In this document: piece by piece, positions 3,113-47,624 of the stretch | Layout of the letters: each line of letters opens with the position of its first letter | How positions within the stretch are numbered: position 1 is the first letter of the stretch | Source: an uncultured Gammaproteobacteria bacterium | GTDB lineage: Bacteria > Patescibacteriota > Patescibacteriia > UBA11705 | Direction: 5' to 3' | Assembly (NCBI GenBank): GCA_964413735.1 | Contig: CAYPSS010000003.1 | Span: forward strand, 106,626-170,625 | Length of the DNA: 64,000 bases | Notes under the pieces: generated by a model | The model's database searches: none | Seen by the model: only the letters and a program-made list of their open reading frames with translations | Told to the model about the DNA's origin: nothing | Position numbers and translations under genes: made by a program

Positions 3113-3721
3113 TTAAACAATATTAAACCAACTTAAAATTTCTAATATTGGTAACAAAACAATGATAATAATAATCACAATCAATATGCCCCAGCCCAAA
3201 ATGGTTAAACAAGTGGGGGCAACGACCATAATGATGCGTTTCATGATCATTTTTTTCACTGCTTTTTTGGCTTGTTCTTTGGCCATTTGAACGGCCATTT
3301 GCTTGGCATTTTCCATAGCATCTTCTTCATCTTCCGTTTCATCTATGACCGGCATTTCGTCTTCTTCATCATCTTCATCATCAGTATAACTTTCTTCGTC
3401 TTCAAAAGTTGGTTCACTGTCTGTTGTTTCCAATTGTTCGGCCATCATTTCGTTAAAAGTCGGAGGGGTCCCAATATTAGGTTGAGAAAATGGGGTTGGC
3501 GGTGAGCCATAGTTTGCTCCATAGGGAGTTTCCGGTTCCGGATTTGTTTGAGGGTAGTCGGCTGTTTCCGGTTCAGCAGGTTGTGGTGTTGATTGCGGTT
3601 TTTCTTGTGATTCCAAAAAATCTTCATAGTCTTGACCGTATGGAGTTTGATTGCTTTGAGGTGATACTGGTGGTGGTTGAGGATTTTGTCCGGTAGTATT
3701 GGAATTGTTATTATCCGGCAT
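3113..3721 (-). CDS. Low-complexity Pro/Gln/acidic protein with C-terminal TM helix (hypothetical)
   Basis: ORF with a Pro-rich N-terminus, a long acidic stretch (DDEDDEEDE) and a C-terminal hydrophobic helix (IIMVVAPTCLTILGWGILIVIIIIIVLLPILEIL). No recognisable family. Confidence 0.45.
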   Translation of the reverse strand: MPDNNNSNTTGQNPQPPPVSPQSNQTPYGQDYEDFLESQEKPQSTPQPAEPETADYPQTNPEPETPYGANYGSPPTPFSQPNIGTPPTFNEMMAEQLETTDSEPTFEDEESYTDDEDDEEDEMPVIDETEDEEDAMENAKQMAVQMAKEQAKKAVKKMIMKRIIMVVAPTCLTILGWGILIVIIIIIVLLPILEILSWFNIV

Positions 3722-9031: not shown

Positions 9032-10408
9032 ATGATAGAAATTAATGATAATATTTTCAAAGCTTATGATATTCGCGGGGTGTATGGTCGTGATTTTGAT
9101 GAACAATTAGCTTACCGATTGGGCCGGGCGTTTGCTGAACTGCTTAAAAGCGAAACCGGTCGAGAAACCGTTAATTTGGGTGTGTCGCAGGATATGCGCT
9201 TATCTTCCCCGATACTTTATGAAAATTTAATCAAGGGAATTTTAGAGCAAGGGGTTAATGTTATGGAGTTTGGTTTGGTTGCTACGCCGACCTTTTATTT
9301 CGGAGTGGCCAAAAATCGTTTGGATGGTGGTATTCAGGTTTCCGCTTCTCATAATCCGCCGGAATATAATGGTTTTAAATTAGTCAGAGATAGTGCCATG
9401 GCGGTAAGCAGTGAGACGGGTATTATGACTTTGAAACAAGCGGTAAAACAAAATGAATTTCCCTCTGTTTCAGTTAAGGGTCACCTGATAGGTAAAGTGG
9501 AAAATTTATTGGATGAACAAGTGGTGTTTGCCATAAGACAAGGTGATGTTACCAAGATAAAGCCTTTTAAAATTGTTGTTGATAGCGCCAATGCGGTTGG
9601 TGGTCCGATGATTAAGGCTTTATTTGATCGTTTGCCGGTAAAAGTGGAATATTTGAATTTTGAACTTGATGGTTCTTTCCCGGCGCATGAGGCTGATCCT
9701 TTGAAAGACAAAAACAACCAACAATTACAAAATAAAGTATTGGAAAGTGGCGCGGATTTGGGAGTGGCGCTTGACGGAGATGGCGATCGAATATTTTTTA
9801 TTGATAACCAAGGAAAAACAGTTGAACCGGCGATTGTGCGAGGAATTCTGGCAAAAATATTTTTACAGGAAAATCCGGGGGCCACAATTTGTTATGATAT
9901 TCGTCCGGGAAAAATTACCGAGGATATGATTGTGGAAAATGGTGGTAAGCCGGTAGTCACGCGAGTGGGACATTCGTTAATCAAAGAAAAGGCGCGTAAA
10001 GTGAATGCGATTTTTGCCGGTGAAAGTAGTGGTCATTATTTTGTTAAATTACCATTTGGTTTTTTCGAAGAACCATTGATCGTGGTATCGAAATTTTTGA
10101 TTGAATTAAGTATTGCCGAATTATCTTTGTCAGAGTATATTAAACCATTGCAACGTTATTTTCATTCCGGTGAAATTAATTTTGGGGTTAATGATAAACA
10201 AGCGGTGTTCAATGCTATAAAAGAAAAATACGGTGACCATTTGCAATATGATTTTGATGGTTTGAGTTTTGTTTGGGAGGATTGGTGGTTTAATGTTCGT
10301 GCTTCCAACACGGAAAATGTGGTACGATTAAATTTGGAAAGTGTGGCACAGTCTTTAACTCAAGAAAAGGTGGCTGAAATTACGGAATTGATCAAACAAT
10401 TTGATTAG
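9032..10408 (+). CDS. glmM: Alpha-D-phosphohexomutase (phosphoglucosamine mutase / phosphomannomutase family)
   Basis: Active-site Ser loop SASHNPPEYNGFK, Mg-binding DGDGDR, sugar-binding GESSGH. 458 aa. Confidence 0.8.
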   Translation: MIEINDNIFKAYDIRGVYGRDFDEQLAYRLGRAFAELLKSETGRETVNLGVSQDMRLSSPILYENLIKGILEQGVNVMEFGLVATPTFYFGVAKNRLDGGIQVSASHNPPEYNGFKLVRDSAMAVSSETGIMTLKQAVKQNEFPSVSVKGHLIGKVENLLDEQVVFAIRQGDVTKIKPFKIVVDSANAVGGPMIKALFDRLPVKVEYLNFELDGSFPAHEADPLKDKNNQQLQNKVLESGADLGVALDGDGDRIFFIDNQGKTVEPAIVRGILAKIFLQENPGATICYDIRPGKITEDMIVENGGKPVVTRVGHSLIKEKARKVNAIFAGESSGHYFVKLPFGFFEEPLIVVSKFLIELSIAELSLSEYIKPLQRYFHSGEINFGVNDKQAVFNAIKEKYGDHLQYDFDGLSFVWEDWWFNVRASNTENVVRLNLESVAQSLTQEKVAEITELIKQFD

Positions 10409-10418
10409 CAATTTTGGC

Positions 10419-10447
10419 TTGACTTTTTTTGGTTTTAGTGGTACAAT
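10419..10447 (+). promoter_or_regulatory. Sigma70-like promoter (TTGACT-17-TGgTACAAT) for micro-ORF
   Basis: ttgact at 10419-10424, 17-nt spacer, extended -10 tggtacaat. GGAGGTG SD then ATG at 10475. Confidence 0.45.
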
Positions 10448-10474
10448 GTTGATGCACTTTGGAGGTGTTTTCCC

Positions 10475-10573
10475 ATGGATTGGCTCTTGCGACGCGAAAA
10501 TTGGAAATGGGGTGCTTTGATTCTGGTGGTCATTCATTTGCTGGTGTTTCTGGGAGTCGGTTTCTCGGTTTAA
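10475..10573 (+). CDS. 32-aa single-TM micro-protein (MDWLLRRENWKWGALILVVIHLLVFLGVGFSV)
   Basis: Own promoter, SD GGAGGTG 7 nt upstream, hydrophobic helix, immediately followed by a terminator. Below the 60-aa ORF-track threshold. Confidence 0.4.
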   Translation: MDWLLRRENWKWGALILVVIHLLVFLGVGFSV

Positions 10574-10583
10574 TTGTTTTGAT

Positions 10584-10607
10584 AAATCTCGTAAAACGAG
10601 ATTTTTT
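10584..10607 (+). terminator. Rho-independent terminator
   Basis: aaatctcg-taaaa-cgagattt stem-loop followed by tttttt. Confidence 0.6.
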
Positions 10608-10639
10608 CGTTAAATTAGATAAATTATATTGAGATAAAC

Positions 10640-10667
10640 TTGACAAATTTAGTGGATTTGCTATAAT
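10640..10667 (+). promoter_or_regulatory. Sigma70-like promoter (TTGACA-16-TGcTATAAT) for GC-rich ORF
   Basis: Consensus -35 and extended -10. Only about 8 nt of leader before ATG 10682, with no SD. Confidence 0.45.
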
Positions 10668-10681
10668 GCGTTTGCTGCAAA

Positions 10682-10990
10682 ATGGCAGTCGTTCTTCTCT
10701 TTCAGGAGGTTTCTGTGGAAGGCGTGGCCAGTGTTCCGGTTGTTCAGGGTGAGGTTCCGGCGCCGACCGAGGCTCCTCTGCCGCAGTTGTCGGTGGATCA
10801 GGAGATTCAGATTCGGAATGTCCTACGCGACATCCTCGAGCGCTGCGAGCGCCCGAGCGACGTCAAGCGTGCGGTCATCCGGCGGCTCGGCGGGAAGTAC
10901 ACTTTCCCGGCGCCGACGGTGATCTGCCGTAAGTCACAGCGACTGGTGGCGATCAAGATCGGCGACCAGGAGATCAGCGTCGAATTGTAA
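10682..10990 (+). CDS. GC-rich 102-aa hypothetical protein with foreign-like codon usage (possible DEK-C-like helical domain)
   Basis: Very GC-rich compared with flanks. Strong GC3 periodicity (GAC ATC CTC GAG CGC TGC GAG CGC CCG AGC GAC GTC AAG). The other two frames give Arg-rich junk. Motif EIQIRNVLRDILE...SDVKRAVIRRLGGKY. Flanked by promoter and terminator. Confidence 0.5.
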   Translation: MAVVLLFQEVSVEGVASVPVVQGEVPAPTEAPLPQLSVDQEIQIRNVLRDILERCERPSDVKRAVIRRLGGKYTFPAPTVICRKSQRLVAIKIGDQEISVEL

Positions 10991-10997
10991 TCTTGAT

Positions 10998-11022
10998 AGC
11001 AGATCAAATGATCTGCTTTTTT
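10998..11022 (+). terminator. Rho-independent terminator
   Basis: agcagatca-aa-tgatctgct perfect stem followed by tttttt. Confidence 0.65.
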
Positions 11023-11057
11023 GTTTGATTGATGTTTTTCACGTTTTATTTTTTAAT

Positions 11058-11370
11058 ACTTGTCCCACTTGTTTTGCTTATTACTTTCTTGCTTACAGCT
11101 TTCTTTATTCTACAGCTCAGACTCTGAAACAAGTTCAGAGTGAGAATATGGTTTTTATTTTTATTCCCTCATTTCCTAATTCTTAATCCCTTTTAATACT
11201 CGTTTCACTCGTATTACTTGTCCCACTTGTTTTGCTTATTACTTTCTTGCTTGCCGCTTTCTTGATTCAACAGCTCAGACTCTGAAACAAGTTCAGAGTG
11301 AGAAGATAACTTGTTTTACTTGTCTTGCTTATCACTTTCTTGCTTACTACTTACTTGTTGTCTGCTTCGA
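11058..11370 (+). repeat. Direct repeat array: two approximately 88-bp copies (11058-11145, 11216-11303; about 84/88 identical) plus a degenerate third copy, each containing a hairpin
   Basis: The copies begin acttgtcccacttgttttgcttattactttcttgctt and end cagctcagactctgaaacaagttcagagtgaga. Inner inverted repeat actctgaa/ttcagagt with loop acaag. Period about 158 bp. No ORF. Confidence 0.7.
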
Positions 11371-11483
11371 CTTGCTTCGCCCGCATAGCGAGGCGAGCGC
11401 TGCTCAGCATGACAACATGATTGACGAATTGTTTTTTTTATGATAATTATTGGTTGGGAATTCTTCAAAAAAGGAGAGCGAAA

Positions 11484-11966
11484 ATGCGAGAAAATTTGAC
11501 TTTGATTATTGTAATTGTCGCAATTATTACCGCTTTCTTAACGCTGGCAGTACAGATTTTTTACGCGTGGTTACAACGAAAAGGTTTTTTACAAAAAGTT
11601 CGTTCGTTTGTTTATCAATCAAGTAATTCTTTTGCAGTTACATTGCCGGATATTTCTTGGTTGCAAATAACTTTGCGTTGGTATTTTGATGCGAAGTTTG
11701 TTTTAACGGAAACGGAAAGGGGACATTATAATAATTTGTTTTATCGGGCGATTGAAAAAGTTATTGTGCAAAATGAATGTTCAACAGATTTTTATCAATC
11801 AGAAGAATTTGTACTTTTATTGGTTAAGGCTTTGCAGGAATTGATAATTGATTCAACGAAAAAAAAATCTGTCTTTCAATTGGAAGTTACTTTGGAAAAA
11901 AACTGTCCAAGAATCCAGAGTGTAAGTTTGCGTCGAGTACTGTCCCCGGAAGATTTTGTGAATTGA
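11484..11966 (+). CDS. Hypothetical membrane-anchored protein
   Basis: SD aaggagag 6 nt before ATG 11484. N-terminal TM (LTLIIVIVAIITAFLTLAVQIFYAWL). No family recognised. Confidence 0.5.
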   Translation: MRENLTLIIVIVAIITAFLTLAVQIFYAWLQRKGFLQKVRSFVYQSSNSFAVTLPDISWLQITLRWYFDAKFVLTETERGHYNNLFYRAIEKVIVQNECSTDFYQSEEFVLLLVKALQELIIDSTKKKSVFQLEVTLEKNCPRIQSVSLRRVLSPEDFVN

Positions 11967-37206: not shown

Positions 37207-37458
37207 TTATTGACCACGACGAGTCATATCAAGACAATGTGTCCAAACCATTTTTCGCAGTTCCGGCAGAGAAATTGGAATGGTGCAAAATTCACGAAGT
37301 TGCTCAATTTTTTCATTGATTCTTCGGTTACTCATAGCCAGATCTTTATCGCAACCAGTCATATTTCGGATACCGTTTGCCAAAAGTTCATCGAAAATGT
37401 CTGAAACCAACTTACGCGCATGCGGATGATCCTTGGTAATTTGTTCCAATCTTTGCAT
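37207..37458 (-). CDS. Small hypothetical soluble protein (83 aa)
   Basis: Strong SD ggaggg 7 nt upstream of ATG 37458. No family recognised. Confidence 0.5.
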   Translation of the reverse strand: MQRLEQITKDHPHARKLVSDIFDELLANGIRNMTGCDKDLAMSNRRINEKIEQLREFCTIPISLPELRKMVWTHCLDMTRRGQ

Positions 37459-37622
37459 TTTCCCTCCTTTTGGGAAAAGATTGGGAAACAGGTTATATTA
37501 GCTGGTTTTTTATTATTTGTCAATAGTTGATTGAAAAACTCAATTTGAGGTGGAAAATTATAATAAATTATTTTACCCGGTCAAAGAAAAATGATATAAT
37601 ATATTTGGTATAAATATAATTT

Positions 37623-47186: not shown

Positions 47187-47215
47187 TTGACAAAATATTG
47201 TTAATATGTTATAAT
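47187..47215 (+). promoter_or_regulatory. Consensus sigma70 promoter (TTGACA-17-TATAAT) driving the GC-rich RNA element
   Basis: ttgaca at 47187-47192, 17-nt spacer, tataat at 47210-47215. Confidence 0.5.
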
Positions 47216-47221
47216 GTTCGC

Positions 47222-47597
47222 GCAGTATCCACATGGAAGTGGAATGTGTGTGTTTTCCTCGAACGTCGCTGGAGGGAGGCCGTGATCAGAGGTCCGCCGT
47301 AACCAAGCAATTGGTTACAGCCCAAAAGCAGTCTGGGCTTGATAATGCGACTGTTAGTTTTCGAGGCGCGGGGTCAGTTGGCCGAATTGGCGCCGGATTT
47401 AACTCGAGAACGACTGTTTATAACAATTTGGCAAGGAGGAAGGGTGACAACGTTGCTGGAACCGTGCTAAAAAGAAGGGTTAGCGACGGACCTGAGCCAA
47501 GTCGTCGTCGTAAATCAGGCCGCATTCGGGGGAGGAACGGTGAGAACGTGGCTGATGACGTATTAATTTGAACCAATGTCTGAGACATTGGTTTTTT
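47222..47597 (+). ncRNA. Candidate structured ncRNA (about 375 nt, GC-rich; class unresolved, RNase P RNA is one possibility)
   Basis: GC-rich block in an AT-rich genome between a consensus promoter and the terminator aaccaatgtctgagacattgg+tttttt. The embedded 112-aa ORF has no GC3 bias, rare AGG/AGA/CGA codons and a low-complexity basic product. Perfect 8-bp stem with GNRA loop (guaaccaa-GCAA-uugguuac). Nested helices ucgag[ggcgc..gcgcc]cucga. Hairpin agccca..ugggcu. Long-range complements cgucgcu/agcgacg and aggucccg-like agguccg/cggaccu. Confidence 0.5.
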
Positions 47598-47624
47598 CGT
47601 TTTAAAATTATTATTTTCAATAAC

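Follow-up and report, generated by a model that had tools for sequence, protein, structure and literature searches.

A putative lineage-restricted gene for a 32-residue membrane peptide between a phosphomannomutase gene and its terminator

The stretch of DNA analyzed here (the window, 64,000 nt, 36.8% GC) is AT-rich and densely coded, and just downstream of a gene for phosphomannomutase/phosphoglucomutase (PMM) it contains a complete small cassette consisting of a promoter, a Shine-Dalgarno (SD) sequence, a 32-codon open reading frame (ORF) and an intrinsic terminator. This cassette is real and non-random, and its combination of signals is far beyond chance. Our preferred reading, which we hold with middling confidence, is that the cassette is a young, lineage-restricted gene for a single-pass small membrane protein, which is probably translated and has a function that is perhaps weakly selected. 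The micro-gene is an ordinary orphan small gene of a well-known kind, the bacterial small membrane proteins, and the GC-rich gene that follows it looks more remarkable than the micro-gene itself. If the peptide is made, it is one more unannotated small membrane protein in a phylum with an essentially unexplored small proteome, and the locus provides a clean presence/absence case, namely a complete gene placed between a housekeeping gene and the terminator of that gene, which is useful for studying the origin of new bacterial micro-genes. The present evidence changes no picture, because no family, partner or conserved function was found, and the locus should be annotated neither as a type I toxin nor as a regulator of the GC-rich gene.

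Architecture of the cassette

The promoter P1 (10419-10447, forward strand) starts 10 nt past the PMM stop codon (TAG, 10406-10408). It is composed of a -35 hexamer TTGACT (10419-10424), a 17-nt spacer that includes TG at 10439-10440, and an extended -10 element TGgTACAAT with the hexamer TACAAT at 10442-10447, and it scored 10/12 with the extended -10 in the promoter scan. Transcription would start near 10454-10456, leaving a 5' UTR of only about 20 nt. The SD sequence GGAGGTG (10461-10467, forward strand), which would pair over all 7 nt with the canonical 3' end of 16S rRNA, is located 7 nt before the ATG at 10475, and this ATG is the first start codon past an in-frame stop at 10436-10438. 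The 32-codon ORF (MDWLLRRENWKWGALILVVIHLLVFLGVGFSV; 10475-10573, forward strand) ends with TAA at 10571-10573.

The intrinsic terminator detected by the terminator scan (AAATCTCGT-AAA-ACGAGATTT followed by a T run, 10584-10607, forward strand) begins its stem 10 nt past the stop codon of the micro-ORF. Its hairpin (10584-10604) has nine pairs, three of them G-C, with a loop of 3, and its T run (T6) extends to 10607; the terminator is modest because the stem is AT-rich, and the hairpin is present in the minimum-free-energy fold of the unit. It is the sole terminator for the upstream PMM gene as well, and in the interval 10409-10583 the terminator scan called nothing besides a weak candidate inside the ORF (10550-10568). 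Because no terminator is found between the PMM stop codon and P1, the PMM transcript should run through the micro-ORF. The micro-ORF would thus be transcribed twice, as an own transcript of about 155 nt from P1 and as the 3' end of the PMM mRNA, and both transcripts would end at the hairpin at 10584-10604. The roughly 165-170 nt that comprise P1, the SD sequence and the ORF appear to sit in an insertion-like manner between the stop codon of PMM and the terminator of this gene.

Comparison with chance expectation

Counted over both strands (128 kb), the window has 13 promoter sites that score at least 10/12 with TG, where 2.1 would be expected. Just 0.4% of the start triplets in the window have an SD core of at least 6 nt ahead of them, and an SD sequence as strong as that of the micro-ORF is possessed by 11 of the 58 long genes. 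When small intergenic ORFs were counted over the whole window (18-90 aa, with an SD core of at least 5 nt at a spacing of 4-12 nt), the micro-ORF was one of two with a strong SD sequence. In Markov simulations of the 306-nt spacer, 4% of trials produced an SD sequence and a start codon with an ORF of 30 or more codons, and this decreased to 0.2% when a membrane-grade hydrophobic stretch was added, the promoter and the terminator not being counted in these frequencies. The G+T-rich composition of the region makes chance hydrophobic ORFs easy, and this counts against the reading as a gene.

The peptide and its RNA

Residues 1-12 of the peptide (MDWLLRRENWKW) are polar and Trp-rich, with a net charge of +1, and residues 13-32 make up a hydrophobic helix at the C-terminal side, so that the polar Trp-rich cluster is N-terminal and the C-terminus (...LGVGFSV) lies inside the hydrophobic helix. 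AlphaFold2 predicted a single helix over residues 3-31 with a pLDDT of 89.7, and in the best 15-residue window (ALILVVIHLLVFLGV) 13 residues are hydrophobic. The original prediction had described a complete promoter-SD-ORF-terminator unit of this kind for a single-helix membrane peptide, and this description is borne out, both in the position of each element, i.e., promoter, SD sequence, ATG at 10475, 32-codon ORF and terminator, and in the strength and non-randomness of the signals, the one helix and the hydrophobicity.

The codon log-likelihood of the micro-ORF is 6.5, which is above 99.6% of off-frame windows of 32 codons and, among true in-frame windows, ranks at the 17th percentile, and the ORF has a strong 3-nt hydrophobic periodicity. 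The +2 frame, which contains a 57-aa ORF with a TTG start (10459-10632), equals the micro-ORF in codon-usage score, and both substitutions found within the micro-ORF in another strain (described below) are synonymous in this frame as well. The 57-aa ORF was considered as the product and rejected, because its TTG is about 3-5 nt from the presumed transcript start, it has no SD sequence and it runs through the terminator.

The fold of the unit RNA was no better than that of shuffled sequences (z = -0.37), and searches of Rfam with the unit, both at gathering thresholds and by E-value, gave nothing meaningful. Because of this ordinary fold and the lack of an Rfam match, the transcript resembles an mRNA more than it does a structured RNA. 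The peptide was used as a query against Pfam, NCBIfam, PADLOC and PHROGs, and no family was found, the single UL42 match being at noise level (E = 0.53). Its exact-product look-up returned no record, tblastn against phage records gave no match, and tblastn against the window and all 17 loci collected for comparison gave only the peptide itself and same-species matches, with no paralog. The ORF was not called by gene callers on either of the two Logan contigs that contain it (L001 and L013).

Genomic setting and distribution

The PMM gene (9032-10408, forward strand) encodes four PGM_PMM Pfam domains, and its best named matches, at 62-63% identity, are from Falkowbacteria and Magasanikbacteria, which are uncultivated Patescibacteria. 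The local gene order is ClpB, M48 peptidase, LemA, DUF8173, PMM, the micro-gene and the GC-rich gene, and past the latter a repeat region, a 160-aa membrane-anchored ORF, MurI and M50 peptidase follow. Protein searches with PMM and MurI, combined with contig look-ups, provided the loci L001, L013, L014, L016, L017 and L010, while scanning GTDB genomes and JGI metagenomes with PMM as the anchor yielded only relatives at no more than 58% identity and without synteny.

Over about 8 kb, the Logan contigs L001 and L013, which derive from other samples, share 98.0% and 99.0% identity with the window, respectively, and on this sequence identity they are the same species as the window. The original prediction had suggested that homologous contigs be searched for conservation of the peptide and of its syntenic position: the micro-gene was found in these three strains only, with flanks about 99% identical, and it is absent at the syntenic site of L014/L016. 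L001 is identical to the window across the unit. L013 has five substitutions in the 155 nt of the unit (3.2%), of which one is in the promoter spacer (10431), two are in the spacer between the SD sequence and the ATG, one is a synonymous change from GAT to GAC (D2) and one is a conservative change in the helix from GTC to GCC (V19A). The promoter hexamers, the TG, the SD sequence, the ATG, the stop codon and the terminator stem are unchanged in all three strains. Since the neighboring genes of L013 differ mostly by 0.2-0.8%, with one at 1.6%, constraint is not visibly stronger on the unit than around it; the substitution pattern is compatible with constraint but carries no statistical power.

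The nearest non-conspecific relative is represented by L014 and L016 (SRR31940688), which overlap by about 22 nt and were read as one genome; amino-acid identity to the window is 79% for the C-terminus of PMM and 71% for MurI. The gene order there is as in the window (PMM, terminator, a homolog of the GC-rich gene, repeat region, 161-aa ORF, MurI and M50 peptidase), and the terminator follows the PMM stop codon after only about 22 nt. This slot in L014 contains no promoter, SD sequence or ORF, and tblastn detected no trace of the peptide in it. In L017 (PMM identity about 60%), an unrelated 73-aa soluble ORF (3328-3549) is translationally coupled to PMM and then followed by a terminator, past which there is a promoter with a distant homolog of the GC-rich gene, itself GC-rich and 86 aa long. 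The slot after PMM is occupied by a GH1 gene in L010 (5369-6406) and by a terminator only in L009, and the terminator lies at the equivalent position, after PMM or the coupled ORF, in L014, L009 and L017. The spacers of these relatives are not alignable. When 175-230 nt of the unit were compared by blastn and Smith-Waterman with the window, the flanking cassettes and the 160-aa gene, scores were at chance level, with no sign of duplication or of a repeat.

A further lineage, L012/L015 (ERR1193289, ERZ27298648; PMM identity 82%), has a P1-like TTGACT-17-TATACT that starts 5 nt past the PMM stop codon, and both contigs end 37-38 nt past this stop codon (slot at 2158-2195 in L012 and 1497-1533 in L015). 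That two independent assemblies break right after the P1-like promoter suggests strain heterogeneity at this place.

The adjacent GC-rich gene

The GC-rich gene forms a cassette of its own (10640-11017, forward strand) with a promoter, an SD sequence, a GTG start and a terminator. Its promoter, TTGACA-16-TGcTATAAT (10640-10667), is a perfect 12/12, its coding sequence (10715-10990, forward strand) starts with GTG and encodes 91 aa of a predicted soluble protein, and its terminator is at 10998-11017. The gene is 63% GC with a GC3 of 77%, compared with a GC3 of 33% for the genes of this genome. The L001 allele shows 34% nucleotide divergence, compared with flanks that differ by no more than 0.5%, and between the alleles dN/dS is 0.27 with synonymous sites saturated. 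High GC is also found in the homologs: 48% in L014 against 35% for the adjacent PMM segment, and 55% in L017 against 37.5% for the locus overall, where amino-acid identity is 29%. The L014 homolog has its own TTGACA-17-TATAAT promoter, and its terminator sequence is the same as that in the window. The GC-rich gene is possibly a hot-spot of recombination or allele swapping, perhaps with GC-biased gene conversion.

An exhaustive HMMER search with this gene found one homolog, no family matched it, and an IMG/VR scan, a profile search of PDB and a Foldseek search against PDB gave nothing significant; RNAalifold detected no conserved RNA structure. Almost no homologs are found by searches of protein databases because automatic gene calling mis-called the gene. 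On the Logan contigs, the call is in the wrong frame in L001 (7635-7865, 76 aa) and on the wrong strand in L013 (7630-8037, 135 aa).

The peptide had also been proposed as a regulatory partner of this gene, and this proposal found no support, as L014 and L017 have homologs of the GC-rich gene in the same position after PMM without the micro-gene, each equipped with a promoter and a terminator of its own. Because the GC-rich gene is kept without the peptide in these two other lineages, the peptide is not its obligate partner. The PMM protein, which is cytoplasmic, is also conserved without the peptide, and no recognizable partner membrane protein was found in the neighborhood.

Interpretation of the micro-gene

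In the preferred reading, the product would be a single alpha-helix with residues 1-12 at the cytoplasmic interface and residues 13-32 across the membrane, oriented N-in and C-out like a tail-anchored protein. The positive-inside rule puts the N-terminus of the peptide in the cytoplasm. With about 35 residues shielded by the ribosome tunnel, a chain must reach 45-50 residues before SRP can target it (PMC12648545); since the membrane span of a 32-residue peptide is still in the tunnel at termination, insertion must be post-translational, and it would proceed by a YidC/SecYEG-type route or spontaneously. Because a strong constitutive promoter and SD sequence go with no detectable antisense control, a tolerated product is suggested rather than a toxin. 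The likeliest role would be that of a non-toxic, abundant accessory membrane peptide that modulates a larger membrane protein by binding to it, with selection on it presumably weak or only recent.

The alternative that deserves the most serious attention, though we consider it doubtful, is that the cassette is expressed and the peptide has no selected function, being a neutral proto-gene that arose de novo from the G+T-rich spacer or else a gene stub, i.e., the surviving 5' end, with promoter, SD sequence and N-terminal signal-anchor, of a longer membrane-anchored gene that deletion has mostly removed. The peptide resembles an N-terminal signal-anchor and stops right past the helix, and neighboring genes start alike, e.g., MRENLTLIIVIVAIITAFLTLAV at 11484. 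No longer homolog was found, however, by tblastn of the fetched loci or by comparison with the 160-aa anchor, where scores were at chance level, and no similarity to flanking DNA indicates a duplication. Restriction of the unit to one species-level cluster, the variable content of the slot after PMM (nothing in L014, the 73-aa soluble ORF in L017 and the GH1 gene in L010), the raised substitution density of the unit in L013 and the ease with which T-rich non-genic sequence gives membrane-span ORFs (PMC7005711) are all in keeping with neutrality, whereas the expression signals are intact in 3/3 strains, and an SD sequence and promoter of the top tier are unexpected in a raw spacer. At the opposite end, it is conceivable but unlikely that a newborn membrane micro-protein, formed de novo or by a recent insertion of about 170 nt in a recombination hot-spot, makes up a strain-specific envelope or interaction module together with the GC-rich gene; the host may then be a reduced bacterium of the episymbiotic type (CPR), with the birth caught at the strain level.

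The original prediction had called the peptide type I toxin-like, which would mean a membrane-damaging peptide whose synthesis is normally restrained by a small RNA encoded antisense or nearby, and we regard this as quite unlikely. According to Fozo et al. (2010; PMC2887945), such toxins have fewer than 70 aa and a predicted transmembrane stretch in which I, V, L, F, C, M and A make up 10 or more of 15 residues, and they are isolated by at least 400 nt upstream and at least 250 nt downstream and/or occur as tandem repeats. The peptide has 32 aa and a membrane span with 13 such residues in 15, and its compact stand-alone cassette and strain-variable distribution are like those of some chromosomal type I loci (PMC2887945), but the likeness ends with size and membrane span. 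The ORF is only 66 nt from PMM and 141 nt from the downstream gene start, where 400 and 250 nt would be needed, it is present in a single copy with no tandem or second copy in the window or the fetched loci, and the peptide has neither a polar or aromatic C-terminal tail nor a match in PADLOC, Pfam or NCBIfam. An antisense RNA promoter on the minus strand over the ORF, which had been suggested as a check, was not found: no minus-strand promoter of at least 9/12 occurs in 10400-10720, the lone minus-strand TATAAT (10628-10623) has a -35 match of 2/6, and the antisense strand is unstructured, folding no better than shuffles (z = -0.91); an RNA encoded in trans elsewhere is conceivable. In addition, the 5' UTR of about 20 nt would expose a strong SD sequence and is not a long folded leader.

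Two further alternatives place the function in the RNA or in the act of translation. A promoter right after a coding sequence together with a shared terminator is how small RNAs derived from 3' UTRs are arranged when they have a promoter of their own, and P1 just past the PMM stop codon and the terminator common with PMM are the two best-supported elements here. A small RNA of about 155 nt as the functional product, with the ORF incidental or the RNA dual-function, is nevertheless improbable in view of the 7-nt SD sequence ideally spaced ahead of the ATG, the codon-plausible ORF with its hydrophobic periodicity, the folding no better than shuffles, the lack of an Rfam match and the lack of conservation of the unit in relatives. 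The other alternative is a leader peptide or attenuator, in which translation of the micro-ORF would control read-through of the hairpin and hence expression of the GC-rich gene; the stop codon is 10 nt before the stem, and a terminating ribosome would overlap the 5' arm. We consider this role highly improbable because a perfect 12/12 promoter for the GC-rich gene lies between the terminator and the start of that gene; besides, no alternative antiterminator pairing of the terminator arms appears in the fold, and the homologs in L014 and L017 lack a leader ORF.

Comparison with known small proteins

The peptide resembles YohP, MgtS, AcrZ, MgrB and KdpF of E. coli (PMC12648545) in its size class (27-50 aa) and single helix, and like small membrane proteins in general it has its own promoter, SD sequence and terminator or operon-end position and is too short for co-translational targeting by SRP (PMC12648545). 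It differs from these five proteins in having no sequence similarity to them and no family match. These proteins are conserved across genera, whereas the micro-gene is confined to strains about 99% identical, and in contrast to the pairs MgrB-PhoQ, AcrZ-AcrB and KdpF-KdpABC, no co-conserved partner gene is present among its neighbors.

A short hydrophobic single helix encoded in a compact cassette is shared with the type I toxins Hok, Ldr/Fst, TisB, Ibs, ShoB and ZorO (PMC2887945, PMC8309996), of which IbsC and ShoB are likewise little more than a helix. Unlike in these systems, a small-RNA gene, whether antisense or adjacent, was not detected, the 5' UTR is neither long nor structured, and the peptide has no homology to known toxins. 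As with the de novo membrane micro-proteins that arise from T-rich non-genic sequence in yeast (PMC7005711), the coding segment of the micro-gene is G+T-rich and gives a membrane helix, and the unit is lineage-restricted, without homologs, and located in former spacer DNA that separates a gene from its terminator, but the micro-gene differs from them in being bacterial and in having promoter and SD signals of the top tier.

Other features of the window

The other small intergenic ORF with a strong SD sequence (AGGAGG, 4 nt spacing) encodes 83 aa (MQRLEQITKDHPHARKLVSD...) on the minus strand (37207-37458), and promoter-like sites are present near it on both strands at 37557-37600.

Downstream of the GC-rich gene, the repeat region (11054-11357) contains two direct repeats of 96 nt (11054-11149 and 11212-11307, 94% identical) and a partial third copy. 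Each 96-nt repeat has an 8-bp hairpin, ACTCTGAA-ACAAG-TTCAGAGT, and runs of ACTTGT/CTTGCTT motifs. Both Logan contigs of the sister strains end in this region, in which the strains differ by indels, and a homologous motif-rich stretch is located ahead of the 161-aa gene in L016. The interval from the GC-rich gene to the 160-aa gene also holds a short palindromic element of high GC (window 11370-11420, minus strand, gtcatgctgagcagcgctcgcctcgc...); it is also present in L014 (1081-1120) and L016 (1-110) as gtcattgcgaggagttccgcgaagcggaacgacgtggcaatc, where the break between the L014 and L016 assemblies falls inside it, and it is probably a dispersed repeat.

Next to dnaB lies a unit (47187-47600, forward strand) whose promoter, TTGACA-17-TGtTATAAT (47187-47215), is perfect and whose terminator (47572-47597) is strong; the two enclose about 375 nt at 50-55% GC with a 112-aa Arg-rich ORF that has no SD sequence. 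With a fold z-score of -2.27 and no Rfam match even at E <= 1, this unit may be an undescribed structured non-coding RNA.
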